Shown here piece by piece: positions 23,621 through 40,133 of a stretch of DNA of 40,283 bases (position 1 is its first letter; the number at the start of each line of letters is the position of its first letter). The DNA comes from Planctomycetaceae bacterium (GTDB lineage Bacteria > Planctomycetota > Planctomycetia > Pirellulales > Thermoguttaceae). The translations under genes were made by a program, and so were the position numbers. Where the stretch lies: NCBI GenBank assembly GCA_031287585.1, contig JAITST010000030.1:1-40283 (forward strand), in the 5' to 3' direction. The notes below the pieces were generated by a model. That model did not search any database and was not told the origin of the DNA. It saw only the letters and a program-made list of their open reading frames with translations.

Positions 23621-23813
23621 TGAAACCTCATTTCTGTTAAGTATGGTTGAAAATCTATTAGCCGTAATACACGATGTAAAACGGACATTTTTCTGATCCT
23701 CTTCTTTGGGAACATATCTTAATTGGGTAATGTCAACAATAATTCAGCCGTCATACCACTTTAACTTCTGACATTGTGAATGATACGGAGACTCGCTCAT
23801 ATACTCTTAATCA

Positions 23814-24917
23814 TCACTTTTCTCTTAGCGATTCCTTGCCGCTCTTGTCAACGTAGCCCACCTTGTTACCTAACTTTACATACGCCAAACCTTCACAGAA
23901 TTCGTCCGCCCGATCATATTTTAACGGTGTGATTTCCTTACCAGTCTTGTCGATGAAGCCCCGATTGCCGCCTAACCTTACACTCGCCAAACCTTCACTG
24001 AAACCGTACGCACCATCATATTTTAACGGTATGATTTCATTACCAGTCTTGTCGATGAAGCCACACTTGCCACCTAAACTTACACACGCCAAACCTTCAC
24101 TGAAAACGTTCGCATCATTATATTTTAACGGTATGATTATCTCGCCAGTCTTGTCTATGAAGCCATACTTGCCGCCTAACTTTACAAACGCCAAACCTTC
24201 AGTAAAAAAACTCATCCAACCATCATATTTAAACGGTGTGATTTCCTTACCAGCCTTGTCGATGAAGCCCCAATTGTCACCTAACCTTACACACGCCAAA
24301 CCTTCACGGAAAAAACTCGCCCAACTATCATATTTTAACGGTATGATTTCCTTACCAGTCTTGTCGATGAAGCCAGACTTGCCGTCTAACTCTACTATCG
24401 CCAAACCTTCACGGAAACCGCCCGCATGATCATATTTTAATGGTATGATTTCCTTACCAGTCTTGTCGATGAAGCCCCACTTGACACCTAACTCCACTAT
24501 CGCCAAACCTTCACTGAATTCGCCCACTATATCATATTTAAACGGTATGACTTCCTTACCAGTCTTGTCGATGAAGCCCCACTTGCCGCTTAACTTTACA
24601 CTCGCCAAACCTTCACTGAAATCGTACGCATTGTCATATTTTAACGGTACGATTTCCTTACCAGTCTTGTCAATGAATCCACTCTTGCCGTCTAAACTTA
24701 CCCACGCCAAACCTTCACGGAAACATCTAATCTCATCATATTTACCGGCGGGAACAAGCACGGATCCATCTTTATTCAATAATCCTACCTTGCCGCCATA
24801 AGCATAGCGTTGGATTGTTTCTTCTGCAAAGATTTTGTCTGCGTTGTATTCGCAACTGAATACAACCAGAATGAATAATGTGATGAAGCACGGAAAAAAT
24901 AGGTTAGTTTTGGTCAT
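23814..24917 (-). CDS. WG-repeat (KWG-like) beta-repeat protein, possible lipoprotein
   Basis: 367 aa with about 9-10 repeats of around 35 aa of the form GKWGFIDKTGKEIIPLKYDxAxxFSEGLAxV. The N-terminal hydrophobic segment ends in VVFSC (lipobox-like). A strong AAGGAG lies 7 nt upstream of the ATG. Confidence 0.8.
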   Translation of the reverse strand: MTKTNLFFPCFITLFILVVFSCEYNADKIFAEETIQRYAYGGKVGLLNKDGSVLVPAGKYDEIRCFREGLAWVSLDGKSGFIDKTGKEIVPLKYDNAYDFSEGLASVKLSGKWGFIDKTGKEVIPFKYDIVGEFSEGLAIVELGVKWGFIDKTGKEIIPLKYDHAGGFREGLAIVELDGKSGFIDKTGKEIIPLKYDSWASFFREGLACVRLGDNWGFIDKAGKEITPFKYDGWMSFFTEGLAFVKLGGKYGFIDKTGEIIIPLKYNDANVFSEGLACVSLGGKCGFIDKTGNEIIPLKYDGAYGFSEGLASVRLGGNRGFIDKTGKEITPLKYDRADEFCEGLAYVKLGNKVGYVDKSGKESLREK

Positions 24918-24952: not shown

Positions 24953-25819
24953 TTAAATATCTATATCTATCCCCAAATACTTGCTAATTGACGCTTTTGC
25001 AAAAGGCATAACGGTACCGCTGAGCGCACTGAGCCAATTCTTAATACTAGTAATAAAGTCTGTAAAGGTATTACTATCCACTCGACTGTCATTGAGAATT
25101 TCTTTCAACTCATCAATTCGATTTTGCGGAATGTCATTTTGCATTAAAGCGGCAATCAACGATTCGAGGTTGTCAGGGATAACTCCGAGATTAATTTGGT
25201 TTTGTGAAACATTCGATGTGTTTTCGTTACCAATTGATACAGCACCTGCATAATTGTCGATAATTAGATTTGGTGCATTATCTTTTTCTACTGATGAGAA
25301 CATCTGACATTCTCCTTTTAGGGTTTGTTTTTCTAGGTCAAGAGACCAACATAAAATCTTATTTCGTACTGTTTCGAGTATTCCATTCAGGTGACCCCGT
25401 GAGTATGGGCGTATAAAAGACGTTTCGCCTTTTGGTTTACTTCTTTCATTCAAAAAACGACGCAAGGAAGCAGAAACAGTAATTGCTAACTGTTCTGGCG
25501 GTAACTTGAGTCCCTCAATAATTTCATGAATTGGTAAAACGCAATTATAAAAACACATCATTTTTTCTATTACTGGGTCAAGGATTGGTACGTGAGTCCA
25601 AGTGCCATTACTATTTTGCGCTGCCAAAAATGTGGGAATCTGCCTATATTTAGGAATTGAATATCCAACAGGATAACCTTCCAACTCATATTGAAGCCAC
25701 TGAGTATTTTCACACTGATCCAGTTTTTTTGCAATGACAAAAGCATGCCGTACGACATCGGACACTGAACAGTTAGTGTCTAATGCCTTTTGTTGTAATT
25801 GTAAAACGAGTGATGTCAT
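24953..25819 (-). CDS. AbiTii-like abortive-infection domain protein
   Basis: Start chosen at MTSLVLQLQQKAL (ATG at 25819, GAAAGG upstream). LQLQQKALDTNCSVSDVVRHAFVIAKKL...WLQYELEGYP...IPKYRQIP and later LETVRNKILCWSLDLEK follow the pattern I recall for AbiTii-domain proteins (LxxAxD...LLRKxxxLAxxL...WxxxELxGY...PxYR). The C-terminal part of about 110 aa is unassigned. Confidence 0.55.
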   Translation of the reverse strand: MTSLVLQLQQKALDTNCSVSDVVRHAFVIAKKLDQCENTQWLQYELEGYPVGYSIPKYRQIPTFLAAQNSNGTWTHVPILDPVIEKMMCFYNCVLPIHEIIEGLKLPPEQLAITVSASLRRFLNERSKPKGETSFIRPYSRGHLNGILETVRNKILCWSLDLEKQTLKGECQMFSSVEKDNAPNLIIDNYAGAVSIGNENTSNVSQNQINLGVIPDNLESLIAALMQNDIPQNRIDELKEILNDSRVDSNTFTDFITSIKNWLSALSGTVMPFAKASISKYLGIDIDI

Positions 25820-26014
25820 CAAAATACCTTTCTGGAAAATTGAGAAATAAAATAAGTTAGTTAAAACACACGGAATTTGTATCGCCGCATCATTAACCTC
25901 GTATGTAATGCAAGCCACGATTGATAGTGTGTGCAGCACAGAAAGTAATACGCCTTTCGCCGAGATTGGATACCTTCTGTGTTTTACTACGAATGGTTAC
26001 GATATGATTGTATT

Positions 26015-27121
26015 CTATTCTCCAATGTTGAATAATACTTTACCTTTCCCATCTGTAACTGTTATATTACCTTTTTGGTATGGAACAGTGTCAAATATGT
26101 GCACCTCAAAATCAAAAGTATCAATTACTTGATACTTTTGATTAAAAAGATTAGTAAATTTGCAAGAAGCTTCAAGCTTGGTACAACCATAATATCGAAT
26201 TTCTATCGTTCTCCAAAAATAAGTGTTCCGTTTCGCTTCTTTCTTTTCATTTACAAAACTTTCCCCCAATGAATCCAACTCCTGTACGGACGACTTGAAT
26301 TCCGCAGCGTCACCAAGAGATGAAAATTTAATTGAAGTCGTAATCATATCAGGAACGGCTGAATTTGTAAAATAAGTGGCTTCCTTAACCGCCCCGCCCC
26401 TTGATTCTATCAACGAACTTGTATCTAGCAATCCATATTTAACATCCCCACGGGGTCTAAACATCCGATCAAATAATAAAATACCTGATGTTTTCTCCCC
26501 TAGTATCCATTTTTCGCCAGCATTTATTTTTCTAAACACATTTCTAAATATTTCTTCTTCACGTGAGTACTGTATTGAGTGCGTCCCATATACAAAGCAT
26601 GTCTCAAAGGGATCCTTGGTAACGCGAAGCAATGCATCAAGACGCGCGTATTCAGTGAAGACAATTGGTATTCTTTCTACAAATAGAGACCGAAATTTCA
26701 CAGAGGGAAAACTCATTGTTTTCCTGTCAAATTCTGGTAGAGGGAGAATAATGTCGTATGGAAATGGCATCGTTACCACAAAGTCACATTTATTATTTTG
26801 AAGAGTAGTTTCCTTCTTTGACTGTTCTTTTTTGAGCTGAATTTCGAGTTGAGGAATTTTATTTGGAGCCGCCTTTATCAACTCTTCCTTCACCTTGATT
26901 CGTTGTTTAAAGTCTGCATCCTCCTCAAATTCTCCCATTTTAAGAGGTACATCCTTTGTTTGTAATACATCACGCAGAGTGCGAATATCCTCTGTGATAG
27001 AAGCAATTTTCTTATCACTGTCAGTTAAAGATTCTAACCGTTTATTGTAAGTTTCTTTCCATTTTTTTTGGAGTTTTTCTATTAACTGATAATCAGGACC
27101 AGAATAAACATCGCACGTCAT
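26015..27121 (-). CDS. hypothetical coiled-coil plus beta-rich protein of unknown family (probably extends to 27333 through a frameshift)
   Basis: 368 aa from the first ATG. It has an N-terminal heptad-like charged region (KLQKKWKETYNKRLESL...IQLKKEQSKKE) followed by a beta-rich domain. The frame stays open for 77 codons upstream of the ATG with no start codon (see findings). Confidence 0.6.
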   Translation of the reverse strand: MTCDVYSGPDYQLIEKLQKKWKETYNKRLESLTDSDKKIASITEDIRTLRDVLQTKDVPLKMGEFEEDADFKQRIKVKEELIKAAPNKIPQLEIQLKKEQSKKETTLQNNKCDFVVTMPFPYDIILPLPEFDRKTMSFPSVKFRSLFVERIPIVFTEYARLDALLRVTKDPFETCFVYGTHSIQYSREEEIFRNVFRKINAGEKWILGEKTSGILLFDRMFRPRGDVKYGLLDTSSLIESRGGAVKEATYFTNSAVPDMITTSIKFSSLGDAAEFKSSVQELDSLGESFVNEKKEAKRNTYFWRTIEIRYYGCTKLEASCKFTNLFNQKYQVIDTFDFEVHIFDTVPYQKGNITVTDGKGKVLFNIGE

Positions 27122-27605
27122 TGGATCAATATAAAAGCGTTTAAGTTCGTACGTTTTATCTGAACCTATATCACCAAGCGGTTTTTGCTCATCAACTTCA
27201 TTTACAGATGCTTTATGAGCGTATTTTACTTCCTGCGCTGTTACAACAGCATCTTCCGGTATGCCAATTCTTGCAAAAAAATGGCTCCTAGTGAGGCTAA
27301 CCTGAACAAATTGAGTGATAGTTTGTTTGTCATAATAAATTTCCTTATAAAGTTAGGATTGTTGAAAAAAAACATTATAAAAATGGTATAGTGATATGTT
27401 TTGTTAATATCACTTACCATACACTTTTGTCAAAATGGCATTTATATTTATTATTTCTCTATGATTGGAAAAGCACTATACTTATGCGATTATAAAACAA
27501 TAACTTACATACAAAGATTTCTATTTTATATTATAGTTTCATTCGGCACGAAAAGATTATTCAGTACACGAACAAATAGTGTTCCGGCTCTTTATCAAAA
27601 TCTGA

Positions 27606-28076
27606 TTAGTCTTTCTTTTTTGAAATTTCAGATGATAATTTTCGTAGTACCAAAAAAGGATGGGACTTTATTTTTTCCGATTCTAGCCACTTGCTGTGCC
27701 AGTCTAGGTATTTTTGAAGTTCAGTGTTTTCTACAACTCGGCAAATGTAGTATTCAATTGGTAATGTATCATTCAAATTAATCTGTTTATTCTCCCAAGC
27801 AATTGCAACAACAGAAAATATACGTAAAAGAGCATCTATTTCCTGTTCTTCATTGCTACCACGAAAATTTTTGTCATCATATTGGAACTGCTTCTCTCCT
27901 GCATACTCAAATTTTTCATAATAAGTATTGTGTATCTTTTCATTAGTTGAAAAATGAAGTAAAACCGACGACACGAGGTTTAACCGAAACTGTCCATTTA
28001 TTGCACATAAAGAACATACGGCAACAACAAGCGTCAGTGTGGCGACAATAAATGTTATAATAGTTAAAAAAAGCAT
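27606..28076 (-). CDS. hypothetical N-terminally membrane-anchored small protein
   Basis: 156 aa with a single N-terminal TM helix (MLFLTIITFIVATLTLVVAVCSLCAI) and a soluble helical domain. It loosely resembles small DUF4760-type proteins, but I cannot confirm that. Confidence 0.5.
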   Translation of the reverse strand: MLFLTIITFIVATLTLVVAVCSLCAINGQFRLNLVSSVLLHFSTNEKIHNTYYEKFEYAGEKQFQYDDKNFRGSNEEQEIDALLRIFSVVAIAWENKQINLNDTLPIEYYICRVVENTELQKYLDWHSKWLESEKIKSHPFLVLRKLSSEISKKKD

Positions 28077-28299
28077 TATGTTTTTTGTCCTTTCAATAAA
28101 CTGGGGGCTATTATGTAATCAAAATTATCTACGAATAATAGTTCTCATTGCGTATATTGTTCTATCACTTCACAATGATATACTTACCATTCTGGTCGAT
28201 AAAAATTCTCTCTTTCAACGAACTGCTCGTTTCCGAACCGCCGACCATTTTAGCATACCGCGTTGCTCGCGACCGTTTCAAATTTATGAAATTCTGGTT

Positions 28300-28749
28300 T
28301 CATTTTAGCAAAAAACCCAAAATTTCTTTAGATTTTTTACTTTTCGCGGGTCGAATCTTGTATGGGAAGCGGTTCTGTTTTAGAAATTTGTTTGTTCGAT
28401 AGACCAAGATTTTAATTGTCGCCGCCGGTATGCACTCTTTTTTACTGCGTTTTTCCCACACATTCCTCTCGACAGTCTCGTAATCGGCGCGGTGTTTCGG
28501 CGATTGCCACAGAGTTTTCAACAGAAGATACGACTTTGGAGTCAGAGGCACAGAGTTGTTGAGCCAAGAAACTGTTCGTGCGGTATCGTCGAATTGCAAA
28601 ACAATTTCATCAATCGGTAATTGTTCGTTTACCGGCAAACAATCACCCATCAACCGATTTTCGATAGTACGAAGAACGGCGACACGTTGAATTGCTTCAT
28701 TTAATTGGCGGTGGATTTCGGGAAGTGTTAGATTGTTGTCCGGGTTCAT
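28300..28749 (-). CDS. standalone OmpR/PhoB-type winged-helix DNA-binding protein (no receiver domain)
   Basis: IVLQFDDTARTVSWLNNSVPLTPKSYLLLKTLWQSPKHRADYETVERNVWE...IKILVYRTNKFL follows the Trans_reg_C pattern (LTPKEFxLLxxL...VxSRExLxxxVW...VxxHIxRLRxKL). ATG at 28749 is preferred. The track ORF starts at a TTG at 28872, so the start is uncertain. Confidence 0.6.
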   Translation of the reverse strand: MNPDNNLTLPEIHRQLNEAIQRVAVLRTIENRLMGDCLPVNEQLPIDEIVLQFDDTARTVSWLNNSVPLTPKSYLLLKTLWQSPKHRADYETVERNVWEKRSKKECIPAATIKILVYRTNKFLKQNRFPYKIRPAKSKKSKEILGFLLK

Positions 28750-29123
28750 TGTTGCGCAACAAAAAAGGCGTGGAATACTTGCCGCCAATCCAGCCCTACC
28801 ACAGGCACCAACGACGACAGATACCACGCCCGATTTCTCGGACGTAGAAATTTCTGTCGCTCGTTGGTTCAAAATGTGGTAATTTGGATTGAGCGATTAT
28901 CTACTAAACTGTTAGTTTCGTAATGTGTTATGTCATAAGTGTTTGTGAGTAAAAATTGTTGTTGGAAAGGATTGCTCTCGCTATTACTTTCCACATTCAA
29001 AGCAAGCCAATCAACCTAGATGGGTTGGTAACCGTTCACGGTTAATTTTGAGTATTCTATCAGAATTTTCAAAAAACCTACTGCGGCTAAAACGGTCTCC
29101 CTTTGAAGGTGCATTTAGGTGTA

Positions 29124-29288
29124 GTCCCGATAGGGACGATATGTTGGTAGAAAACCAAACATTATTTGGAAAAACGAAAGACATACAACCTGCCTACCAA
29201 TGCCTTTGTGGAACGGGGGGTTATCATTCGTTTATCCAAATAAGGTTTGGTTACAACGTTCATCACCAACATATCGTCCCTACGGGAC
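29124..29288. repeat. MITE-like or structured element: imperfect inverted repeat arms enclosing an R2 repeat copy
   Basis: The left arm gtcccgatagggacgatatgttggt...accaaac (29124-29160) pairs with the right arm gtttggt...accaacatatcgtccctacgggac (29245-29288). The R2 copy at 29172-29214 lies between them. Further hairpins follow, including gtccctaacgggac at about 29325. Confidence 0.7.
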
Positions 29289-29491
29289 TGAATTTTTTTA
29301 CCATTCGTTTCTACCGATATTTCGTCCCTAACGGGACTATGATTAGCCGTCTTATAAAAATCACCCCGCCTACGATTGCTCTATCAATAGCGTTTTATTG
29401 TTTTACGGTGACTAACCTAAAACCCACTCAAAATCTGCAATCTAAAATCTAAAATCTAAAATAAAAAATCGCCGCGTTTTTCGTAGTGTTT

Positions 29492-30932: not shown

Positions 30933-31892
30933 ATGACTGGACGTAAGATTGTCGTTTTATTGTTCGTTGTGGCAGTTTTGGTTTTTGCGATGTCAACTGG
31001 GGCTAACGTTGTCTATTCCCAGACAACAGACCCGATTGCGAAGGAGCATCGCGGTGAAGTTTTATACGACCAAGGTGTTCACGCGTATTTCGACCACGAT
31101 TACAAAGACGCAATATCACGGCTCGAACAGGTAGAGGAACTTGACAGTATCGACCCGCGTCCGTATTTCTTTTTGGGACTTGCGCATTTCAAAAACGACG
31201 ACAAGGAAAAGGCAGAGAAGTATCTGACAAAGGCATCTCGGCTTGAATGGACACGCCGCGGGATGAGAGATTTCGATGTTGCGGCGGCGTTGGTTCGTGT
31301 TCAGGGAAAGGAGCGGGGGCTGGTAGAAAAGTTCCGTAGTCAAGCGAAACAAGAATGGCAGCAAACGGAAGCAGAACGGCGGAAAGTTCGTTACGGCAGT
31401 ACGAAAGACAACGATAGAGCGATTTTGGAGGCGATTGTCAAGCAAGGTCCGACAGAATTTGTAGGTCAAGCACCATTCGGAGCGCGTTCAACAGACCCGT
31501 TTAGAACGGAAACAGATGACGGCGGAGAACGCCTAATAAAGTCAGACGATGCCGTGCCGTCGGTGGTAATCAAGAAAGAAATGAAAGAAGAAAAACCTGT
31601 ACTAGAAGATGTAAAGACAGACGTTACGGAAACGGATGATATGAAGTCGGACGACGAAAAGAAATCTGACGTTGAAGACCCGTTTGCGGACGATGAAAAG
31701 AAGTCTGACGAAGAAGACGAAAAACCTGCTGACGAAAAGAAGTCTGACGATGAAGACGAAAAATCCGCTGATGAAAAGAAGTCTGACGACGAAGACGAAA
31801 AATCCGCTGACGAAAAGAAGTCTGACGAAGATGACGAAAAATCCGCTGATGAAAAAAAATCTGGCGGAGAGGATGAAGACCCGTTTGGTTGA
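30933..31892 (+). CDS. secreted TPR-like protein with highly acidic tandem-repeat tail
   Basis: AGGAG lies 7 nt upstream of the ATG at 30933. Has a signal-like VVLLFVVAVLVFAMSTGANVVYSQ, TPR-like helices (YDQGVHAYFDHDYKDAISRLEQV...YFFLGLAHFKNDDKEKAEKYLTKA), and a C-terminal ADEKKSDDEDEKS repeated about 4 times. Confidence 0.65.
   Translation: MTGRKIVVLLFVVAVLVFAMSTGANVVYSQTTDPIAKEHRGEVLYDQGVHAYFDHDYKDAISRLEQVEELDSIDPRPYFFLGLAHFKNDDKEKAEKYLTKASRLEWTRRGMRDFDVAAALVRVQGKERGLVEKFRSQAKQEWQQTEAERRKVRYGSTKDNDRAILEAIVKQGPTEFVGQAPFGARSTDPFRTETDDGGERLIKSDDAVPSVVIKKEMKEEKPVLEDVKTDVTETDDMKSDDEKKSDVEDPFADDEKKSDEEDEKPADEKKSDDEDEKSADEKKSDDEDEKSADEKKSDEDDEKSADEKKSGGEDEDPFG
31692..31860. repeat. 39-bp tandem repeat, about 4 copies, encoding the acidic tail
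   Basis: The unit gatgaaaagaagtctgacga.gaagacgaaaaa.c.gct is repeated head to tail. Confidence 0.8.
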
Positions 31893-31976: not shown

Positions 31977-32969
31977 ATGAAAAAATTTATCGCACTGCTA
32001 CTATTCGCCGCCGTTTTTGGTGTTGCTGGTTATTTTGTCTGGCAAAATATGTTTGCGACAAACGCTGGTACGGACAAAACGATGACGCTTTACGGTAATG
32101 TCGAAATTCGCCGTGTCAATCTTGGTTTCAATGTCTTTGGTCAGATTGTTGAAATGCCGTTCAAAGAAGGCGATAAGATTCTCCGCAATTCTGTTGTCGC
32201 GCGGCTTGACCGTCAACCGTATCAGGACGATGTTGAGATTGCCGCCGCGCAAGTCAAACGCGCCGAAGCAAATCTCAAAAAACTGCAAACCGGTAATCGA
32301 CCACAGGAAATCGCACAGGCACACGCAACATTGAACGAACGAATCGCAACTCTTGATGTTCTCAACGCGGAGGTACGGCGGGCGCATCTCTTGATTGACA
32401 AACAAAATATCTCGCCGCAGGAATTTGATAATGTCATCGCAAGCCAAAAAGAAGCGACCGCGCGAAAACAACTTGCGGAGGAAACGTTGAACTTGTTGAT
32501 TGAAGGGTTTCGTCAAGAGGACATTGACGCTGGTGAGGCACAATTTGCCGAAGCGAAAGCGAATCTCAAACGAACGCAAACGCTGCTCGGCTACACAGAA
32601 TTGCATTGTCCCAACGACGGAATTTTGTTGACACGTGTCGAAGAGCCGGGAGCGGTTGTGAATCAGGGGCAGACGGTTTTGGTGCTTTCGCTTCAAGACG
32701 AAGTTTGGGTTTATGTTTATCTGCCCGAACCCGATCTCGGTAAAATCGCCCCCGGTATGAAAGCAAAAATTTACACGGATTCCGCTCCCGATAAACCTTA
32801 CGGCGGGCAAGTCGGCTACATTTCACCCGAAGCGGAATTCACTCCGAAAAATGTTGAAACGCCGCGTCTGCGAACCGACCTTGTCTATCGTGTGCGGATT
32901 ATCGCGGATAATCCCGACGACGGATTACGTCAGGGAATGCCGGTTACTGTTGTGTTAGCGAAAGATTGA
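31977..32969 (+). CDS. HlyD-family periplasmic adaptor (YbhG-like)
   Basis: 330 aa with an N-terminal anchor helix, a coiled-coil hairpin (AAAQVKRAEANLKKLQTGNRPQEIAQA...), a barrel-sandwich (GMKAKIYTDS) and a C-terminal GMPVTV. It lies immediately upstream of a duplicated ABC ATPase. Confidence 0.85.
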   Translation: MKKFIALLLFAAVFGVAGYFVWQNMFATNAGTDKTMTLYGNVEIRRVNLGFNVFGQIVEMPFKEGDKILRNSVVARLDRQPYQDDVEIAAAQVKRAEANLKKLQTGNRPQEIAQAHATLNERIATLDVLNAEVRRAHLLIDKQNISPQEFDNVIASQKEATARKQLAEETLNLLIEGFRQEDIDAGEAQFAEAKANLKRTQTLLGYTELHCPNDGILLTRVEEPGAVVNQGQTVLVLSLQDEVWVYVYLPEPDLGKIAPGMKAKIYTDSAPDKPYGGQVGYISPEAEFTPKNVETPRLRTDLVYRVRIIADNPDDGLRQGMPVTVVLAKD

Positions 32970-32971: not shown

Positions 32972-34666
32972 ATGATACACCTCAATCAACTTACCAAACG
33001 TTTCGGCGACAGCGGGCGGGCTGCTCTTGATTCTGTTACCGCCGAAATTCTATCGGGGCATATTACCGGAATTGTCGGTCCCGATGGTGCGGGTAAAACG
33101 ACGCTTGTGCGGTTGCTTGCGGGGTTACTCAAACCGACGACCGGTACCATCGACGTTTCGGAAACGCTGAACATCGGCGACAGGTCGATGCTCGGTTATA
33201 TGCCGCAGCGTTTCGGGTTGTATGAAGATTTAACGGTGCTGGAAAATCTGAATCTTTATGCGGAACTGCGAGGTCTTGAATCGCCGGAACGCAAAGACCG
33301 TTTCGCTCAACTCCTGCAATTCACTGGTCTTGAAGCGTTCACTCAACGTTTGGCGAAACGTTTATCAGGCGGTATGAAACAAAAACTCGGCTTGGCTTGT
33401 GTTCTTATCAAGATGCCGAAGTTGTTGTTGCTTGACGAGCCGGGTGTCGGCGTTGACCCGATCAGCCGCCGCGAACTTTGGCGGATGGTTCGCGAACTTG
33501 TTACCGATGATATTGTTGTTATCTGGAATACCGCCTATCTTGACGAAGCCGAAGCGTGCGACGATGTGTTGCTGCTCAACGAAGGCAAACTGCTTTTTCA
33601 CGGTCAACCGAGTGAACTGACTGGTCGATTGACAAACCGTGTTTTTCAAGTTCGCGGACTCGCGCCAACCGAACGCCGCCGTGAACTTGTCCGGTTAATG
33701 CGCCAACCGGAAATTATTGACGGCGTGATTCAAGGTGATGCGTTACGAATTGTTGTGAGTCAAAATGGATTACGACCCGCGTTACCGTCTGTTACGCTGA
33801 CTCCACCGGCGAGTATCGTTGCGGTAACTCCGCGATTTGAGGACGGTTTTATCGACCTTTTGGGCGGTGTGCCGAAAGGCGATTCGATACTTGCGCGCCA
33901 ACCGGCGAAACAAATCAGCGACGATAAACCGGTTGTCGTTGCCGAAGGACTGACCAAGCGGTTTGGTTCGTTCACGGCGGTACATAATAATTGCTTTTCG
34001 ATTCGGCGCGGCGAGATTTACGGATTGCTGGGACCGAACGGCGCGGGGAAAAGTACAACATTCAAAATGCTTTGCGGTTTGTTGAAACCGACAGACGGGA
34101 ATTGTTTTATTGCCGGTTATAACTTGCGGACATCGCCGTCGCGGGCAAGGTCGCGGCTCGGTTATATGGCTCAAAAGTTTTCGCTGTACAACGATTTAAC
34201 GGTTCGTCAAAACCTGACGTTCTTCGCGGGCATTTACGGTTTGTGGGGGTTTGCGAAACGGCGGGTTGTCAACGAGATGCTTGAAATGTTTGACTTGGGA
34301 CAGTATGCTTCGGCGAATGCGGGTTTATTGCCGTTGGGTTTCAAACAGCGTCTTTCGCTTGCCGCCGCGCTGATGCACGAACCGGATGTGTTGTTTCTTG
34401 ACGAGCCGACTTCCGGTGTTGACCCGCTCACCCGCCGCGAATTTTGGACACATATCAACGCCCTTGTTGAACGCGGTGTTACGATTTTAGTAACGACGCA
34501 TTTTATGGACGAAGCGGAATACTGCGACCGAATCAGTTTGATTTTTCACGGTGAAACGATTGCAACCGGAACGCCCGACAAACTCAAAGAATCCGTCCGC
34601 ACCGGGCAACTTCCAGAGCCGACTTTGGAAGACGCGTTCGTTGCGCTGGTACGCGGCGAACCGTAA
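32972..34666 (+). CDS. ABC transporter ATP-binding protein with two fused ATPase domains (YbhF-like)
   Basis: Has two Walker A motifs (GPDGAGKTT, GPNGAGKST), two signature motifs (LSGGMKQKL, LPLGFKQRL) and two Walker B motifs (LLLLDEP, VLFLDEP). ATG at 32972 is preferred over the TTG at 32966. Confidence 0.9.
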   Translation: MIHLNQLTKRFGDSGRAALDSVTAEILSGHITGIVGPDGAGKTTLVRLLAGLLKPTTGTIDVSETLNIGDRSMLGYMPQRFGLYEDLTVLENLNLYAELRGLESPERKDRFAQLLQFTGLEAFTQRLAKRLSGGMKQKLGLACVLIKMPKLLLLDEPGVGVDPISRRELWRMVRELVTDDIVVIWNTAYLDEAEACDDVLLLNEGKLLFHGQPSELTGRLTNRVFQVRGLAPTERRRELVRLMRQPEIIDGVIQGDALRIVVSQNGLRPALPSVTLTPPASIVAVTPRFEDGFIDLLGGVPKGDSILARQPAKQISDDKPVVVAEGLTKRFGSFTAVHNNCFSIRRGEIYGLLGPNGAGKSTTFKMLCGLLKPTDGNCFIAGYNLRTSPSRARSRLGYMAQKFSLYNDLTVRQNLTFFAGIYGLWGFAKRRVVNEMLEMFDLGQYASANAGLLPLGFKQRLSLAAALMHEPDVLFLDEPTSGVDPLTRREFWTHINALVERGVTILVTTHFMDEAEYCDRISLIFHGETIATGTPDKLKESVRTGQLPEPTLEDAFVALVRGEP

Positions 34667-34672
34667 TCGTAA
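34662..34672. repeat. left copy of the 11-bp direct repeat CGTAATCGTAA flanking the inserted cassette
   Basis: Exact 11-mer that overlaps the ATPase stop codon. The identical 11-mer is at 37835-37845. Confidence 0.85.
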
Positions 34673-34770
34673 CGGAAGTTACAGATAAGCGGCGATTGAA
34701 TGTTGGTTTGTAGAAATTTTGTCAACTTGCCAAATTATACTTGTCCCGTTTGAAAATTGTTTGTGAGGTA

Positions 34771-34799
34771 TTGTACCCTTTCAAAAAATTTGATACAAT
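34771..34799 (+). promoter_or_regulatory. putative promoter of the R-M cassette
   Basis: TTGTAC (34771-34776), a 17-nt spacer, then TACAAT (34794-34799), immediately upstream of the tandem operator-like repeats. Confidence 0.35.
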
Positions 34800-34805
34800 G
34801 ATAAG

Positions 34806-34845
34806 ATATGACTGTGAACAGTTGTATATGACTGTGAACAGTTGT
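34806..34845 (+). promoter_or_regulatory. two exact tandem copies of a 20-bp unit, each containing the palindrome ACTGTGAACAGT (operator-like)
   Basis: atatgactgtgaacagttgt occurs at 34806-34825 and again at 34826-34845. ACTGT..ACAGT is a 5-bp inverted repeat. The site lies between the putative -10 and the methylase ATG at 34930. Confidence 0.6.
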
Positions 34846-34929
34846 ACTGTGTTGTATCTTGAGTTCTCGCAGATGCCCTAATAAACTGTTGCTATAAGAC
34901 GATGAACGGTTCTGCCATTTTTATTTTCA

Positions 34930-36039
34930 ATGAAAAACTACCGAACATTACAGTTCCATAACAGGTATTCAGAAAGCGATATTGTTGTTGGTTTTCAAGT
35001 TTTGAATACCGCGGGAATCCAGACACGGATTAACGAAGATAGTGTTGTCCTTGATTTTGATGTTGTCGATATGAAGTATATCGAAAGACAACAGAGTCAA
35101 ACGGAAGAATTGCTCTCGCACGTTCTCACCGAATTGTTAAAAATCCGTTCGTTTTCCTCTGCTAATGGTAAGATTATTTTCAAAACATTTAACAAAGAAA
35201 AACGTGTTAGCGGTAAAGCCGAAAATAAAAAAAAACGGCTTGGCTATGAATCGTTTCAAAAACATTTTTCAACAGAAAATAATGAAGTGCCGCCGGAGTT
35301 TCTCAATAAAATTATCTGCGCGGATTCTCTCAATCAGTTGGCGCAATTTCCTGATAATTGCGTTGATTTGATTTTCACTTCACCGCCGTATAATTTTGGT
35401 ATCAATTACAATAATACCGATGACGTGAACACTTGGCATGATTATTTTGATATGCTGTTTGCCATTTTCGGCGAGTGTGTCCGCGTGCTGAAAAGCGGCG
35501 GGCGAATAGTCGTGAACATTCAGCCGCTTTATTCTGATTATGTCCCGTCGCATCATCTTGTCAGTAATTTTTTCGTCCAACAGGGTTTGATTTGGAAGGG
35601 CGAAATCATCTGGGAAAAAAATAACTATAACTGCAAGTATTGTACTTGGGGCAGTTGGCAAAGCCCGTCGTCGCCATATTTGAAATATTCTTGGGAATTT
35701 GTTGAAGTATTTTGCAAGAACACGTTGAAAAAAGACGGCGAAAAAGAATACGCCGATATTACCGGCGATGAGTTCAAAAAGTGGGTTTATGGCAAGTGGT
35801 CAATCGCACCGGAGCGAAAAATGAAAGAATATAAACACGATGCAATGTTTCCAGAGGAACTTGCAAAACGTGTCCTCAAACTCTTTTCGTTTCAAAACGA
35901 TATCGTGCTTGACCCGTTCAACGGAGTCGGAACGACAACAAAAGTTGCCCGTTCATTGGGACGGCAATTTATTGGAATTGATATTGACGCAGAATACTGT
36001 AAAACAGCAAGAGGGAGACTTAAAGATGGCTTTTTCTAA
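34930..36039 (+). CDS. beta-class N4/N6 DNA methyltransferase (SPPY type, likely N4-cytosine) with N-terminal extension of about 125 aa
   Basis: Motif IV DLIFTSPPY comes before motif I VLDPFNGVGTT, which is the beta-class order. Also has the FPEELAKRVLKLFS region. The N-terminal 125 aa have no recognised domain. Confidence 0.85.
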   Translation: MKNYRTLQFHNRYSESDIVVGFQVLNTAGIQTRINEDSVVLDFDVVDMKYIERQQSQTEELLSHVLTELLKIRSFSSANGKIIFKTFNKEKRVSGKAENKKKRLGYESFQKHFSTENNEVPPEFLNKIICADSLNQLAQFPDNCVDLIFTSPPYNFGINYNNTDDVNTWHDYFDMLFAIFGECVRVLKSGGRIVVNIQPLYSDYVPSHHLVSNFFVQQGLIWKGEIIWEKNNYNCKYCTWGSWQSPSSPYLKYSWEFVEVFCKNTLKKDGEKEYADITGDEFKKWVYGKWSIAPERKMKEYKHDAMFPEELAKRVLKLFSFQNDIVLDPFNGVGTTTKVARSLGRQFIGIDIDAEYCKTARGRLKDGFF

Positions 36040-36844
36040 CAAAAAAACTTTACAAAAATTTCTGCAACCGCTCATTGAAAAACATGTTCACGCGTCAAAC
36101 ATCGCAAAAAAGTTGAGGGATACTAAACATTCGAAGTTCCTTTTTGAATGTGCAGACCACTATAAAGAATTACATGATTCTTTCCAAGTGGAAAATGTTG
36201 CCAAAATGGTCAAGAACTGGAATATCTATCTGGATTATGTCAGAGAACACAATGAGGGAAAATTCTCTGCTCAGTCAAAATTTGAGCCGACGATATTAGA
36301 AGAGAGTGTTTATCGAATGTTTTCTCACCTTGAAAACGAAATAATAAAAATAGGAACGATCAAAGCATATTCTAACCTGTATTTCTCGCCCGTTGATTTT
36401 GAAAGTTTTCAAAATCAATCAAGAGTGAAAATTAACACCAAAGATCAGGATTTTTCAATCTATAAAAAAGTATCAATACAAGTCAGCGATGCTTCTGGTG
36501 CCGTTGATACTTTTATTCCTGTTGTTGCTATGGAATGTAAAACATATTTAGACAAAACAATGCTTGAAGGAAGTATCGCAACTGCCGAAAAAATCAAACA
36601 AGGAAATCCTTATTGCCGATTTTGTATCATTACTGAATTTTATGACGTTGATAAAAAGGTTGATGTTAAACACTCGCGCATAGACCAAATTTACGTTTTT
36701 CGTAAAAACGCCAAACGCAAATCTGGTATGTCCAGCATTTGTCATGACGTTGTAAAACTACTCTATGACGACACAGTAAAACATCTTGAACAAAAATGGT
36801 CAGATGTGGAGAAAAATATAAAAAGTCGGGGTGTCGTATTATGA
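36026..36844 (+). CDS. putative type II restriction endonuclease (PD-(D/E)xK-like)
   Basis: Start chosen at MAFSNKK (ATG at 36026), which overlaps the methylase 3' end by 14 nt. Has a candidate catalytic pattern DQDF...(about 27 aa)...VVAMECK. The position next to the methylase supports the call, but no specific enzyme family is recognised. Confidence 0.55.
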   Translation: MAFSNKKTLQKFLQPLIEKHVHASNIAKKLRDTKHSKFLFECADHYKELHDSFQVENVAKMVKNWNIYLDYVREHNEGKFSAQSKFEPTILEESVYRMFSHLENEIIKIGTIKAYSNLYFSPVDFESFQNQSRVKINTKDQDFSIYKKVSIQVSDASGAVDTFIPVVAMECKTYLDKTMLEGSIATAEKIKQGNPYCRFCIITEFYDVDKKVDVKHSRIDQIYVFRKNAKRKSGMSSICHDVVKLLYDDTVKHLEQKWSDVEKNIKSRGVVL

Positions 36845-36862
36845 CAATTTTCAATCGTGTTC
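36844..36862. repeat. partial copy (19 bp exact) of repeat family R3
   Basis: acaattttcaatcgtgttc is identical to 12972-12990. It lies between the nuclease stop and the DUF3791 start and is followed by TATATA. Confidence 0.7.
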
Positions 36863-36892
36863 GGTATATAAAACAAGGAAGTCTGTACTGAT

Positions 36893-37129
36893 ATGGAAAC
36901 AAAAACATTAGACAGAGAAGCAGAAAACAGGATAAGTTTCATTACTTATCTGATAGTGGAATTTGCGGAGGCGTTCAAAATGTCTAAACCGAAAGCATAC
37001 CTGTATCTGCAACAGTACGGCGGTTTGGATTTTCTCTACAAACACTGGTGGGCGTTGCATACCGATAGTAAATACTATGCCTTGTTGGATCTGTACGAAG
37101 TTTGCCGTAAAAATGGAGGTTATCGATGA
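36893..37129 (+). CDS. DUF3791-like small protein
   Basis: 78 aa. ISFITYLIVEFAEAFKMSKPKAYLYLQQYGGLDFLYKHWWALHTDSKYYALLDLYEVCRKNGG matches my recollection of the DUF3791 pattern (...efAkxxxxsxxxAxxYLxxyxgxxfLxxxYxxxHtxs...dlxxxCxknGG). Confidence 0.65.
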   Translation: METKTLDREAENRISFITYLIVEFAEAFKMSKPKAYLYLQQYGGLDFLYKHWWALHTDSKYYALLDLYEVCRKNGGYR

Positions 37130-37839
37130 TTGTTTATCACGGCAGTTACATTGAAATCGATGTGATTGATTTGTCTCAATGCGAACCGCATAAAGATTTT
37201 GGACAAGGTTTTTATGTAACGAAATACAAGAAACACGCCGAAACGTGGGCGGCAAGAATCGGTGAAAAACACGAAACAAAAGGCGTTGTAACGGAATTTA
37301 ATTTTCACGAGAGTGCTTTTACAAATAATAAATACAAAGTGTTGCGGTTTGCAGATTATTCCGACGATTGGTTGGATTTTGTTGTCAATAACCGCAACAA
37401 TGAATCGCCTGTGCCGTCTCACGACTATGACATTGTCGAAGGTTATGTTGCCAATGACCGTATTCAAAGGCGTATTGATGATTATCTCGCGGGTATTATT
37501 GATCGCGAAAAGTTCCTCAAAGAATTAGTCTATCACGAACCAACACACCAAATTTGTTTTTGCACAGTTAAATCACTGCAAATGCTCGAAAAAGCGGCTC
37601 GGCATGAGATCAGCAACATAGAAGATATTGCCGATGCAGTGATTGTCGCCCTTGTTACAGAACAATCTAAAACAGAAGCCGAAGCCATTGATATTTTTTA
37701 CAAATCTGTAACTTTTGCGAAATTGACTGAGAAAAACTCCTCTTTGCTTTCTCTGACTTGGAGAGAAATATACAATTTATTCTTACAAGAATTAGAAAAC
37801 AGAACGTGTTGTGAGCATCCTGCTTGCAAGTCATCGTAA
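37126..37839 (+). CDS. DUF3990-like protein with H-Y-E (ADP-ribosyltransferase-like) motif pattern
   Basis: 237 aa. MIVYHGSYIEI...KDFGQGFYVTKYKKHAETWA...WLDFVVNNR...YDIVEGYVANDRI...QICFCT matches the DUF3990 pattern. Its ATGA overlaps the DUF3791 stop, and GGAGG lies 5 nt upstream. The last few codons and the stop lie inside the right 11-bp direct repeat. Confidence 0.7.
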   Translation: MIVYHGSYIEIDVIDLSQCEPHKDFGQGFYVTKYKKHAETWAARIGEKHETKGVVTEFNFHESAFTNNKYKVLRFADYSDDWLDFVVNNRNNESPVPSHDYDIVEGYVANDRIQRRIDDYLAGIIDREKFLKELVYHEPTHQICFCTVKSLQMLEKAARHEISNIEDIADAVIVALVTEQSKTEAEAIDIFYKSVTFAKLTEKNSSLLSLTWREIYNLFLQELENRTCCEHPACKSS

Positions 37840-37845
37840 TCGTAA
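37835..37845. repeat. right copy of the 11-bp direct repeat CGTAATCGTAA
   Basis: Exact match to 34662-34672, 41 nt upstream of the permease ATG. Confidence 0.85.
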
Positions 37846-37885
37846 GCAAGATGCTTGCGGCACCTTCAAACCTGCCACTTCAACA

Positions 37886-39004
37886 ATGTCCCGAATACGA
37901 CGTTTAATCGCTTTAATGGTCAAGGAAACGCTTCAGGTGAAGCGCGACCCGAGTTGTATTTTGATTGCGTTTGTACTGCCGGTGATATTGTTGTTCATTT
38001 TCGGCTACGGGATTTCGCTTGATATTCGGTATGTCAAACTGGCGGTCGTTCTTGAAGACCATTCGCCGACAGCACAAACTGTTTGGGCATCGCTGCAAGC
38101 AACCGATTACATCACGCCGATTTATTACGCTGACCGTCATTCCGCAGAAGAAGCGATTGTCAACGCCCGTGTTCGCGGATTGCTCGTCATTCCCGACGAT
38201 TTTTCGCAACGCCTTAACGCCGACGGTTTCGCAACACTTCAACTGCTGACCGACGGTGTTGAAACGAATACGGCAACGATTCTTGAAAATTACGTTCGCG
38301 GTACGATTGCGGTTTGGGCGAAACAGCAAAGCCGTGATCACGGAATTGAATATACCGCGCCAACCGACATCCAAAGCCGTGTTTATTTCAATCCCGAACT
38401 CGAAAGCCGCAACGCTTTGATTCCCGGCTCGATTGTTCTCATCATGGCGATTATCGGAACGCTGCTCACGTCGCTCGTTGTTGCGCGAGAGTGGGAACGC
38501 GGTACGATGGAGGCGATGCTGGCGACTCCGATTGCGTCAATCGATATGCTGCTCGGCAAACTTGTTCCGTACTACGTGCTTGGGATGTTGTCGAACGCGG
38601 CTTGTGTTTTGGTTGCGGTTTATCTTTTTCATTTGCCGTTTCGCGGTTCGGCGGCTTCGCTGTTTTTGGTTTCGTCAGTGTTTTTGATTGCGGCACTTGG
38701 ACTTGGCTTTTTAATTTCAACTCTTTGTAAGAATCAGTTTCTTGCATCCCAGTTGGCGCTTGTGTTGGGCTTTTTACCGAACTACATTTTGTCCGGTGCG
38801 TTGTTTGAAATCAATTCAATGCCGTTACCGATTCAATTTTTGACCTATTGTTTTTCAGGACGATACTACGTAACGTGTCTTCAAACGATTTTTATGGTCG
38901 GCGATATTTGGGCGTTGCTTCTTCCGAATATCTTTTTTATGTTTTCGTTAGCAGCGTTGTTTTTTGCAATCACGCTGCGTGTTACACCGACACGGCTCGA
39001 ATAA
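37886..39004 (+). CDS. ABC-2 type transporter permease (YbhS-like)
   Basis: Start chosen at MSRIRRLIALMVKETLQVKRDP, the typical ABC-2 N-terminus. Has a large periplasmic loop followed by 5 TM helices (EWERGTMEAMLATP motif). Confidence 0.85.
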   Translation: MSRIRRLIALMVKETLQVKRDPSCILIAFVLPVILLFIFGYGISLDIRYVKLAVVLEDHSPTAQTVWASLQATDYITPIYYADRHSAEEAIVNARVRGLLVIPDDFSQRLNADGFATLQLLTDGVETNTATILENYVRGTIAVWAKQQSRDHGIEYTAPTDIQSRVYFNPELESRNALIPGSIVLIMAIIGTLLTSLVVAREWERGTMEAMLATPIASIDMLLGKLVPYYVLGMLSNAACVLVAVYLFHLPFRGSAASLFLVSSVFLIAALGLGFLISTLCKNQFLASQLALVLGFLPNYILSGALFEINSMPLPIQFLTYCFSGRYYVTCLQTIFMVGDIWALLLPNIFFMFSLAALFFAITLRVTPTRLE

Positions 39005-39029: not shown

Positions 39030-40133
39030 ATGTTGAACCGGCTTTTTCATTTGATTATCAAGGAGTTTCTCGCGCTGCTTCGCGACCCGAAGACGCGGGG
39101 TATTCTTATTGTCCCGCCGATTTTGCAGATATTCATTTTTTCGTACGCAATCACGCAGGATGTGAAAAATGTTTCGTTGGCGGTTTTGAATCACGATACC
39201 GGCGTAGAGAGCGGCACGTTAATTCAGCGTTTTCAGCAATCACCGACATTCACGCGGATTATTTCACTTTCGCATCGGGGCGAAATTGATTCGGCGATTG
39301 ATAAGCAGCAAGCGATGATCGTGCTTGTGATACCGCAGGATTTTTCGCGGAATCTTTATGGCGGTCGCGTTGCGAGTGTTCAGGTTTTGCTTGACGGACG
39401 TAAATCGAACGCGGCACCGATTGTCGGCAGTTACGCGACAAAAATTGTCAACAAGTTCGTTCAGGAACGAAGTCGAACGGCTCAAAATGTTGGTGTTGAT
39501 ATTCAGACACGGCACTGGTTTAACAGTAATCTCGAACCAAAACGGACAACGATACCGTGCTTGGTTTGTATTCTCGCGACGGTTTTAGGAATGTTGGTGT
39601 CCGGTCTTTCGATAGCGCGTGAACGGGAAATGGGGACGTTTGAGCAGATTTTAGTTTCGCCGCTCACGCCGACAGAAATCCTTCTCGGTAAGGCGATACC
39701 GGCACTCGTGCTGGCAACCGGCTCTTCGATGATACTCATTATGATTGCGGTTTTCATTATGGGCATTCCGCTTCAAGGTTCGTTCTGGCTTTTACTGGCA
39801 TCGCTTGACCTTTTTCTGTTGTCGGTGATTGGTATCGGACTTTTCATCAGTTCGTTGTCGGCAACTCAACAACAGGCGATACTGGGAGTGATACTGATTT
39901 TGCCGCCGTCGATAATGCTTTCCGGCTTTGCGACACCGGTCGAAACGATGCCGAATTGGATGCAATGGTTAACGGTCGCGAATCCGGTGCGTTGGTACTT
40001 GGTGATAGTGAAAGGCGTTTTTATGAAGGGAATGGATGCTTACGAAGTCTTTCTCAACTGTGTCCCGCTCGCCGCAATTTCGCTGATAACCCTCTGCGCG
40101 GCATCGACAATGTTTCGCCGGCGGATGGAGTGA
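39030..40133 (+). CDS. ABC-2 type transporter permease (YbhR-like)
   Basis: Has MLNRLFHLIIKEFLALLRDPKTRGIL, REREMGTFEQILVSPL and PNWMQWLTVANPVRWY. It is a paralogue of the preceding gene. Confidence 0.85.
   Translation: MLNRLFHLIIKEFLALLRDPKTRGILIVPPILQIFIFSYAITQDVKNVSLAVLNHDTGVESGTLIQRFQQSPTFTRIISLSHRGEIDSAIDKQQAMIVLVIPQDFSRNLYGGRVASVQVLLDGRKSNAAPIVGSYATKIVNKFVQERSRTAQNVGVDIQTRHWFNSNLEPKRTTIPCLVCILATVLGMLVSGLSIAREREMGTFEQILVSPLTPTEILLGKAIPALVLATGSSMILIMIAVFIMGIPLQGSFWLLLASLDLFLLSVIGIGLFISSLSATQQQAILGVILILPPSIMLSGFATPVETMPNWMQWLTVANPVRWYLVIVKGVFMKGMDAYEVFLNCVPLAAISLITLCAASTMFRRRME

Follow-up and report, generated by a model that had tools for sequence, protein, structure and literature searches.

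The subject of this report is contig JAITST010000030.1 of the Planctomycetaceae bacterium assembly GCA_031287585.1, a stretch of 40,283 nucleotides (nt) referred to here as the window, in which an ABC exporter operon of the ybhGFSR type is interrupted by four genes of defence type that lie between its ATPase gene and its first permease gene. The main finding is that these four genes make up two modules of two genes each that travel independently of one another, namely a type II restriction-modification (R-M) pair and a DUF3791/DUF3990 pair. In the account that we favour, and that we hold as a whole with slightly better than even confidence, the two modules would have arrived separately, the R-M pair as cargo of a non-autonomous element of the IS630 type, the foreign DNA would end near position 37800 at the foot of a hairpin native to the operon, and an exact 11-bp repeat found at both edges of the block would not be the joint of an insertion. 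The insertion of R-M systems into operon-like clusters is already known (PMC2853133), as is the listing of the DUF pair as the candidate defence system PDC-M13. The points of some interest are the probable IS630-type vehicle of the R-M pair, the transfer of the DUF pair from Bacteroidia to a Planctomycete, and the presence of two modules without a recombinase side by side between the same two cistrons.

The source organism is a Planctomycete whose nearest relatives are metagenome-assembled genomes (MAGs) from the termite gut and other guts, and the contig is chromosomal, since it carries genes for SecA, DXP synthase, malate dehydrogenase and phosphoglucomutase. The exporter operon starts with a periplasmic adaptor of the HlyD/YbhG type (31977–32969, plus strand; Pfam HlyD_D23 and HlyD_3; NCBIfam PRK03598, E 7e-112), which is followed by a YbhF-like fused double ABC ATPase (32972–34666, plus strand; two stretches matching Pfam ABC_tran, E 2e-59). 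After the inserted genes come two ABC-2 permeases, one YbhS-like (37886–39004, plus strand; Pfam ABC2_membrane_3, E 1e-45) and the other YbhR-like (39030–40133, plus strand; Pfam ABC2_membrane_3, E 3e-43), both intact. This complement, an adaptor with a fused double ATPase and a pair of ABC-2 permeases, all in a single orientation, is that of a ybhGFSR-type exporter, and its gene order recurs in 75 related loci; the four inserted genes are closely packed and run in the same direction. A first-pass annotation of this DNA had named eight genes in the region, all of which were recovered with Pfam, and had proposed that foreign defence-type genes split a ybhGFSR-like operon between ATPase and permeases, which the present analysis bears out.

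The insertion is real at the level of gene order. In all 75 related loci that have both genes, the gap from the ATPase to the first permease measures 0–380 nt (median about 8) and holds no gene, and none of the four inserted proteins is encoded in the 84 related operon loci that were fetched. The nearest full orthologue, L081, has a spacer of 81 nt, and its four operon proteins are 65, 75, 70 and 72% identical to those of the window, in operon order. The inserted genes also stand out in composition, with a guanine-plus-cytosine (G+C) content of 0.34–0.40 against 0.43–0.54 for the other (host) genes of the contig. The first-pass annotation had offered relatives with the same four genes, and no shift in composition, as the outcome that would speak against an insertion; the count of such relatives is 0 of 75, and the genes are compositional outliers. 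Its description of the whole block as AT-rich stands for the four genes only, as the 263-nt non-coding leader ahead of them (G+C 0.35) is indistinguishable from host intergenic DNA (0.32–0.46). That there was no insertion at all, and that the four genes are ancestral to the operon and were lost in the relatives, is scarcely credible. This explanation has nothing in its favour beyond the lack of an empty site at the nucleotide level; it is already contradicted by the gene-order survey, in which the 75 related operons without the four genes come from many phyla, and it would have to account for compositional outliers whose nearest relatives are found in other phyla and in unrelated contexts.

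A nucleotide-level empty site is out of reach because the nearest relative is only 76% identical. The nearest ATPases (69–76% identity) come from MAGs of Planctomycetaceae and Thermoguttaceae, several of them from the termite gut; no ATPase above 76% identity was found among 5.8 billion proteins or in a genome scan, searches for identical copies of the ATPase and permease of the window returned nothing, and the orthologous spacers between ATPase and permease are unalignable at the nucleotide level. Among these ATPase relatives of 69–76% identity, L001, L003, L004, L082 and L083/L084 have the ATPase, with or without the adaptor, and no permeases after it. They show at least four arrangements, in which the ATPase is followed by an RCC1-repeat protein, a DNA alkylation repair enzyme or convergent genes. 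Operons of this clade thus seem to break repeatedly between ATPase and permease, unless these genes are orphan paralogues. One of them, L082, gave a match to the methylase that belongs to a different R-M system upstream of the orphan ATPase; in that system an N6_N4/C5 methylase fusion accompanies a split nuclease of the BsuBI/PstI type (1043–4115 of that locus), with the ATPase 4 kb downstream, and its proximity is probably a coincidence.

The first-pass annotation had treated the four genes as a single cassette, and this part of it did not survive. Elsewhere, the two pairs are always apart and independently distributed: the methylase–nuclease pair stands alone, with the same small overlap, in three unrelated contexts (L085, L086/L087 and L089), and DUF3791 lies directly 5' of DUF3990 in 29 of 29 loci and never beside an R-M pair. 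Because the two pairs occur separately, the block is composite. The DNA of the R-M pair is about 70% identical to that of L089, L085 and L086, and the DNA from 36892 to 37799 is 79–80% identical to the Bacteroidia loci L090–L092, with homology limited to that span. As for the order of events, the DUF pair was probably there first and received the R-M unit in its leader. The nuclease gene and the DUF3791 gene are separated by 48 nt.

The earlier statement that the block lacks an integrase or transposase gene within its 3.2 kb was confirmed. The contig as a whole has no recombinase gene, the window gave no matches in scans for Rfam families and tRNAs, and the cassette DNA had no match in plasmids; in phages its sole match was a short segment of the methylase, in cyanophages.

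The first gene of the R-M module (34930–36039, plus strand) encodes a beta-class N6/N4 DNA methyltransferase of 369 amino acids (aa; Pfam N6_N4_Mtase, PF01555, E 1.8e-43; PADLOC MTase_II, E 6e-68) with an N-terminal extension of about 125 aa and the motif IV sequence SPPY at residues 151–154, and its PDB matches are N4-cytosine methyltransferases and CcrM. The second gene (36026–36844, plus strand) overlaps the first by 14 nt and encodes a restriction endonuclease of 272 aa belonging to the BbvCI/Bpu10I family (Pfam RE_Bpu10I, PF09549, E 2.9e-25), with a PDB match to BbvCI R2 (6eg7, E 3.9e-25) and low identity to the solved subunits. Its closest relatives, at 63–66% identity, are scattered over Elusimicrobiota, Planctomycetales, Marinilabiliaceae, Prevotellaceae, Brachyspira and Helicobacter. 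The BbvCI, Bpu10I, Bsu36I and BlpI group has a common CC/GC|TNAG core (PMC6326814), and by analogy the present nuclease probably cuts a site with a CTNAG core. BbvCI and Bpu10I are heterodimeric, whereas here one nuclease gene accompanies one methylase gene, which suggests a homodimer acting on a symmetric site.

The contig itself bears indirectly on this specificity: of the 16 gapped five-base palindromes, none is more depleted than CTNAG, with 14 occurrences observed against 50.8 expected (observed/expected, O/E, 0.28; z -5.2). The sites lie at 2156, 4130, 7052, 8171, 12035, 14165, 15375, 22274, 23824, 25020, 25029, 25700, 36270 and 37727, and 12 of the 14 are CTSAG. Such a depletion fits a CTNAG-type system active on the lineage for some time. 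Other palindromes are low as well (GGNCC, O/E 0.35; CCNGG, 0.49; AGNCT, 0.54), and the overall pattern suggests long exposure to several restriction specificities. The depth of the CTNAG depletion also counts against the account favoured here, because it implies a long residence that is at odds with the unameliorated composition of the inserted genes.

Within the leader, 85 nt upstream of the methylase start, there is a tandem of 2 x 20 bp, ATATGACTGTGAACAGTTGT (34806–34845, plus strand), with the palindrome ACTGT-GA-ACAGT in each unit, and it looks like an operator. The motif has no other copy within the window and none in the 1.5 Mb of related loci. It was not found upstream of homologous R-M or DUF pairs either, so it can be assigned to neither module. 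A 9-bp repeat, ATTTTCAAT, that abuts the R-M open reading frames (ORFs) at 34923 and 36847 was also considered and discarded, as it belongs to the right inverted repeat described next and is not significant alone.

The evidence for a vehicle comes from two inverted repeats of 25 nt that bracket the R-M genes. The left one, TATACTTGTCCCGTTTGAAAATTGT (34736–34760, plus strand), is 76% complementary to the right one (36844–36868, minus strand; reverse complement TATACCGAACACGATTGAAAATTGT), which shares position 36844 with the end of the nuclease stop codon. The first-pass annotation had reported no terminal inverted repeats, and this is correct for the ends of the 3.2-kb block, where none exists between 34673–34700 and 37800–37834, but not for the R-M genes within it. 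Since a lone inverted pair amounts to noise, the case for terminal repeats is carried by a dispersed family to which both ends belong. The left end is identical to 12570–12596 at 23 of 27 positions and the right end to 12972–12990 at 19 of 19, with BLAST E-values of 4e-4 and 0.005 for the two unit ends against other copies. A segment of 427 bp (12570–12996) has left-type and right-type motif ends in the same order and orientation as the R-M unit; its only ORF of note, of 61 aa, has no Pfam match, and the segment may be an empty relative of the unit that carries the R-M genes. Further copies of the motif lie at 3701, 5238, 5267, 5298 and 14555, the word TAYACCGAACAC is found exactly three times in the window against 0.01 expected, and the family is absent from the 1.5 Mb of the relatives' loci.

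Every copy of the motif starts TA|TAC and the R-M unit ends ...GTA|TA, the TA being inseparable from the motif; the ends of the family give the pattern TATAC(C/T)...TTGAAAATTGT, by which a matching IS630-family element could be recognized. The contig carries a C-terminal fragment of an IS630-family (DDE_3) transposase (14169–14423, plus strand; Pfam DDE_3, E 3.6e-10, 40.3 bits against a cut-off of 28.6). It lies in 2.2 kb of insertion sequence (IS) debris (12499–14690) that also holds an rve_3 C-terminal remnant (13523–13657, minus strand). An ORF in the same debris (13718–14101, minus strand) resembles an IS3-type OrfA by eye, and its match to HTH_Tnp_1 has an E-value of only 0.19. Taken together, these sequence features suggest that the R-M pair is most likely the cargo of a non-autonomous IS630-type element moved in trans, with the built-in TA and the co-occurrence with the transposase fragment as the sole grounds for assigning the motif to IS630. 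To the left of the unit, between the left copy of the 11-bp repeat and the left inverted repeat, there remains a non-coding stretch of 63 nt (34673–34735) that could be of host or foreign origin as judged from the change-point in composition, which falls at 34664–34695 for the left boundary; these flanks have no significant similarity to other repeats.

Several observations weigh against an IS630-type vehicle. Neither an intact IS630 transposase with 25-nt motif ends was found on the contig, nor does any such end adjoin the fragment at 14169–14423. In AT-rich DNA, inverted pairs of 25 nt that are about 75% complementary arise often as noise, and around the R-M pairs of L085, L086 and L089 only such AT-rich noise was found. 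Apart from the TA that belongs to the motif itself, no clear duplication of a target was detected, and no empty TA site was seen. Finally, the copies at 5238–5318 are not simple left/right pairs, and a regulatory motif, or one resembling repetitive extragenic palindromic (REP) sequences, would fit them as well. This last possibility can be developed into an explanation of its own, in which the 25-nt motif belongs to the host's intergenic DNA and serves, for instance, as part of a promoter or as a site for protein binding, the R-M pair came by illegitimate or homologous recombination, and the inverted pair is incidental or later. Besides the noise level of such pairs, the missing transposase and the cluster of three copies at 5238–5318, it can point to the minus-strand copies at 3701 and 36844, which lie 24–50 nt upstream of plus-strand genes, and to the presence of TTGAAA in the motif, followed 16 nt later in two copies by TGTAAT or TGTAGT. 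We regard a host motif as possible but rather doubtful, as it does not explain why left and right variants are common to the R-M unit and the 427-bp segment in the same order and orientation, why three copies have no downstream gene to drive, or why all copies start TA|TAC on a contig that carries an IS630-family transposase fragment.

Non-autonomous elements that hold cargo between transposon ends are familiar as IS630/Tc1-mariner-type miniature inverted-repeat transposable elements (MITEs) and mobile insertion cassettes. The R-M unit and its relatives resemble the IS630-type MITEs in their short and imperfect inverted ends, their TA flanks, their several copies, the ORF-less 427-bp relative and the transposase fragment nearby; they differ from them in that some copies of the motif are unpaired and no intact transposase with matching ends was seen. 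Among R-M insertions in general, some are flanked by repeats spanning start or stop codons, some lie in operon-like clusters, and others form transposon-like units between inverted repeats, for which mobilisation in trans has been raised as a possibility (Furuta, Abe, Kobayashi 2010, PMC2853133). On the reading as IS630-type cargo, the R-M pair would belong to the transposon-like class. The present locus shares with them an R-M pair without a linked mobility gene in an operon-like cluster, imperfect inverted repeats, and a direct repeat that overlaps the stop codon of the upstream gene. Unlike them, its direct repeat has 11 bp rather than tens to hundreds of bp and lies apart from the ends of the unit bracketed by inverted repeats, and a second, unrelated module is part of the same insertion.

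One copy of the 25-nt motif adjoins a palindrome of about 200 nt (3435–3633; arms of 48 nt, 90% complementary; no Rfam match), located in the spacer after the gene at 797–3406, together with a 73-nt repeat shared with 12915–12987.

The second module starts with the gene for a DUF3791 protein of 78 aa (36893–37129, plus strand; Pfam DUF3791, E 1e-17; PADLOC PDC-M13A, E 4e-14), the presumed antitoxin or immunity partner. It overlaps by 4 nt, small gene first, with the gene for a DUF3990 protein of 237 aa (37126–37839, plus strand; Pfam DUF3990, ADP-ribosyltransferase (ART) clan, E 5e-47; PADLOC PDC-M13B, E 3e-49). Both components of PDC-M13 are thus present and adjacent. DUF3791 is 93–94% identical at the amino-acid level to Bacteroidia copies, and the closest relatives of DUF3990, at 78–81% identity, come from termite-gut Bacteroidia; a metagenome scan with DUF3990 gave only relatives of up to 59% identity. 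Sequence comparison thus indicates that the pair was acquired from Bacteroidia-like donors. In termite-gut Bacteroidia, too, the pair is found within functional clusters: in locus L092 (2284–3197) it has a SusC gene on one side and a SusD gene on the other, and in L090 (5768–6717) it begins 8 nt after a gene for 3-keto-disaccharide hydrolase, again among SusC/SusD genes; a promoter of the TAnnTTTG type is found just upstream of most Bacteroidetes copies of the pair.

The reading of the DUF pair as toxin and antitoxin follows from family membership and gene arrangement and is put forward here as a putative function. Pairs built on the ART fold include ParT/ParS and DarT/DarG. The DUF pair is likewise a two-gene system with a member of the ART clan, whereas DUF3791 is unrelated to ParS or DarG. 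Residues H5, Y30 and E105 of DUF3990, candidates for a triad of the H-Y-E type, are conserved in 119 sequences, and a weak match to ART-PolyVal was found (E 0.0018). A structural model of DUF3990 built from 13 sequences was unusable (predicted local distance difference test, pLDDT, 59), and one built from 119 sequences reached a pLDDT of 87; the top Foldseek matches of the model are tankyrase PARP domains and ParT, none of them significant (E 0.6–1.5). DUF3990 is placed in the ADP-ribosyltransferase clan of Pfam (PMC7955679) and occurs as the tip of Rhs toxins (PMC4524185). In the literature on the DUF3791/DUF3990 family no report of toxicity, immunity or anti-phage activity was found.

The probable right end of the foreign DNA can be estimated from the DUF3990 gene. 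Homology with the Bacteroidia DNA ends at 37799, the conserved part of the protein ends near 37803 in alignments, with the last 10–12 codons and the stop not conserved, and the change-point in composition for the right boundary falls at 37804 in two of three models; on these grounds the foreign DNA probably stops near 37800, at the foot of a hairpin. Residues 230–237 of DUF3990 are predicted to be disordered (pLDDT <50). DUF3990 would have lost its native end and would now read into the hairpin until a TAA in the loop. From the stop codon of DUF3990 to the first permease the spacer measures 46 nt.

The hairpin (37802–37867, plus strand) is predicted to form in RNA with 24 bp, five of them G.U pairs, and a 14-nt loop, at -32.3 kcal/mol (z -6.35; 0 of 200 shuffles). 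It is weaker on the minus strand (-24.9 kcal/mol, z -3.3) and as DNA (-12.1 kcal/mol), and it is among the four most structured places of the contig in windows of 70 nt. Its left arm (37802–37827) lies on the side that the first-pass annotation had given to the cassette and its right arm (37842–37867) in the host spacer. When the right side is held fixed, a fold this stable is reached by 5 of 5992 natural 35-mers of the contig and by 0 of 4000 shuffles of the real arm (<=8e-4). Complementarity that is so rare by chance argues that the hairpin is one unit, and a duplication of, or crossover at, the 11-bp repeat would split its arms between two parental molecules. Comparable hairpins occur in the long ATPase–permease spacers of the nearest orthologues (L081, z -8.6; L011, z -7.4; L005, z -2.4), and most likely, as far as sequence can tell, this is the operon's own intercistronic hairpin.

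Strong hairpins of the REP type are known between cistrons of transporter operons, and those of the E. coli malEFG operon stabilise the upstream mRNA. Here, too, a strong hairpin without a U-run lies between the cistrons of a transporter operon; it differs from the REP type in that the inserted ORF ends in its loop and that the hairpins of different genomes have no sequence similarity. As a separate observation, the long spacers of relatives (L081, 9722–9788; L011, 1445–1855; L015; L067; L033/L042) usually hold a very stable palindrome (z -5 to -14), and these palindromes are unrelated in sequence between genomes, as if the gap repeatedly captured REP-like elements.

The first-pass annotation had given prominence to an 11-mer, CGTAATCGTAA, that is found exactly at both junctions, and this observation is correct. 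The left copy (34662–34672, plus strand) contains the ATPase stop codon TAA (34664–34666) and reads CCG TAA TCG TAA in frame with the ATPase. The right copy (37835–37845, plus strand) contains the DUF3990 stop codon (37837–37839) and has seven bases in the hairpin loop and four in the right arm. The window holds these two copies and no third exact one on either strand. The annotation had added that the match would mean little if the 11-mer were a frequent word; in the window it is not, and an exact word of at least 11 nt common to two zones of the size of the junctions (270 and 82 nt) is found in 0.9–1.2% of placements within it. A chance match therefore has low odds that are not negligible. 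Identity ends at 11 bp, without one base more on either side, and the flanks of the two copies have no significant similarity to each other beyond the 11 nt. The overlapping 10-mer GTAATCGTAA has three exact copies in the window against 0.08 expected, the third (12950–12959, minus strand) being inside a dispersed repeat, as well as a copy with one mismatch (3680–3689) in a homologous dispersed repeat; one copy was found in the 1.5 Mb of related loci. A candidate reading of the junctions as diverged copies of that dispersed repeat (3615–3730 and 12880–13000) looked promising in local alignments and was dropped, as all p values exceeded 0.19 once the shared 10-mer was excluded.

The simplest use of this repeat is to let a single block of 3.16 kb (34673–37834) enter an ancestral spacer once, duplicating an 11-bp target, CGTAATCGTAA. 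The insertion would have been made by a transposase acting in trans, or by the capture of foreign DNA at a staggered break once its ends had been filled in, and DUF3990 would have borrowed its stop codon from the duplicated target. The ancestral site would then read from the ATPase stop through CGTAATCGTAA to GCAAGATGC, that is, one CGTAATCGTAA followed by GCAAGATGCTTGC, with no left hairpin arm. Several points speak for it: the repeat is exact, 11 nt long, unique to the two low-GC block edges in the window and matched by chance at a rate of only about 1%, and both copies read xCG TAA TCG TAA in frame with the preceding ORF. Removal of one copy and the intervening DNA restores a spacer of 46 nt, where the first-pass annotation had estimated about 40 nt, and this lies within the 0–110 nt range of most relatives. 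Moreover, R-M insertions with direct repeats spanning stop codons, including some in operon-like clusters, are documented (PMC2853133), and the right-hand host sequence alone still folds into a 9-bp hairpin at -10.1 kcal/mol. Yet a single block would require its left hairpin arm to be foreign DNA that complements the host flank by chance, at the rarity given above for natural 35-mers and for shuffles. It would also require two modules never found together elsewhere to have come as one, it has no terminal inverted repeats at its ends and no likeness between the flanks of the 11-mer copies, and the 10-mer core of its supposed target recurs in a dispersed repeat elsewhere on the contig. A target duplication of the long kind described by Nobusato and by Furuta, of tens to hundreds of bp, does not apply to an identity of only 11 bp. 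We thus think a single block unlikely, though the odds of a chance 11-mer (about 1e-2 to 1e-3) are of the same order as those of an accidental hairpin (<=1e-3), and it keeps a substantial share of belief.

A further use of the repeat, as an att-like core at which a circular insert was integrated by a single crossover with a recombinase encoded elsewhere, is improbable. The repeat does flank the insert exactly, and the excess of the 10-mer in the window over its expected count and over the related loci could be taken to mean that the copies at 12950 and 3680 are unoccupied secondary sites. However, a crossover at the 11-mer would put the hairpin arms in different parental molecules, no recombinase gene is found on the contig, there is no similarity around the copies, and the third copy of the 10-mer is explained by the homology of the two dispersed repeats, with a chance probability of 0.08. 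Readings of the junctions as integron sites or as ends of IS200/IS605-type elements (TTAC) were also tried and rejected for want of core sites or subterminal hairpins; no attC cores of the form RYYYAAC...GTTRRRY are present at the hairpin or the junctions, and no integrase gene is on the contig.

The 11-bp repeat is therefore real at both edges, as the first-pass annotation had said, and its role there as boundary or target duplication is doubtful, since the right copy lies within the 24-bp hairpin; it is probably not the joint of the insertion. The account of two separate modules ending at a native hairpin has its own difficulties. It leaves unexplained an 11-mer whose chance rate is about 1% by the zone test, and less if its position on the stop codons is counted. 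The profile of the right change-point is flat, so that 37804 and 37845–37857 differ by only 1–3 log units; most relatives have spacers of 0–30 nt without a hairpin, and the host origin of the hairpin falls short of proof. Both boundaries of the insertion are placed indirectly, with relatives too distant for a nucleotide-level empty site.

For the permeases, which are intact, read-through is the simplest expectation, as no terminator-like site was found at 37800–37886 in a terminator scan. The hairpin itself lacks the U-run of an intrinsic terminator, being followed by AAACCUGCC, and was not picked up by that scan; promoter and terminator scans were at background level throughout. Transcripts that reach the permeases by read-through would presumably start at the promoter of the operon, at promoters inside the inserted DNA, or at both.

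Other parts of the window also hold repeats and probable insertions. A second low-GC islet (0.36–0.37), at 24953–27121 (minus strand) and 27122–29491, contains a gene of the AbiTii family (24953–25939; Pfam E 6e-27; PADLOC E 9e-31) and an ORF of 368 aa without a family match, followed by 2.4 kb without recognisable genes, and is probably another small defence insertion. Long coding arrays of Sel1 and WG repeats occupy 21893–24917, and a coding tandem repeat with a unit of 39 nt (31653–31886), which encodes an acidic repeat rich in D, E and K, forms the end of the gene for a TPR protein just upstream of the exporter operon. An element of 69 nt, present in two copies (6463–6531 and 21107–21175) that are 93% complementary and each strongly self-folding, lies just past the 3' ends of the genes at 6599–8422 (minus strand) and 19157–20860 (plus strand), and constitutes a dispersed hairpin element, possibly a repeat of the terminator type.

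For annotation in general, the locus indicates that an insertion joint cannot be defined by a short, exactly repeated word on either side of low-GC DNA, and that host RNA structure and repeat families need to be checked as well. It offers a compact case of addiction and defence modules that accumulate without a recombinase, in an orientation that need not silence the permeases downstream. The 80% DNA identity of the DUF pair between Bacteroidia and a Planctomycete points to a flow of a candidate defence pair between phyla of a gut community. If the reading of the inverted repeats is true, the ends of a resident IS family would be a concrete vehicle for R-M mobility in a phylum whose mobile elements have been little studied. 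Only tentatively do we propose the full picture, of a complete R-M system carried as MITE-like IS630-type cargo and nested in the leader of a Bacteroidia-derived ART-toxin pair inside a working operon; if it is true, defence modules of small size could pass from genome to genome in gut phyla, and from one such phylum to another, without a recombinase of their own, by means of resident transposases and read-through transcription.

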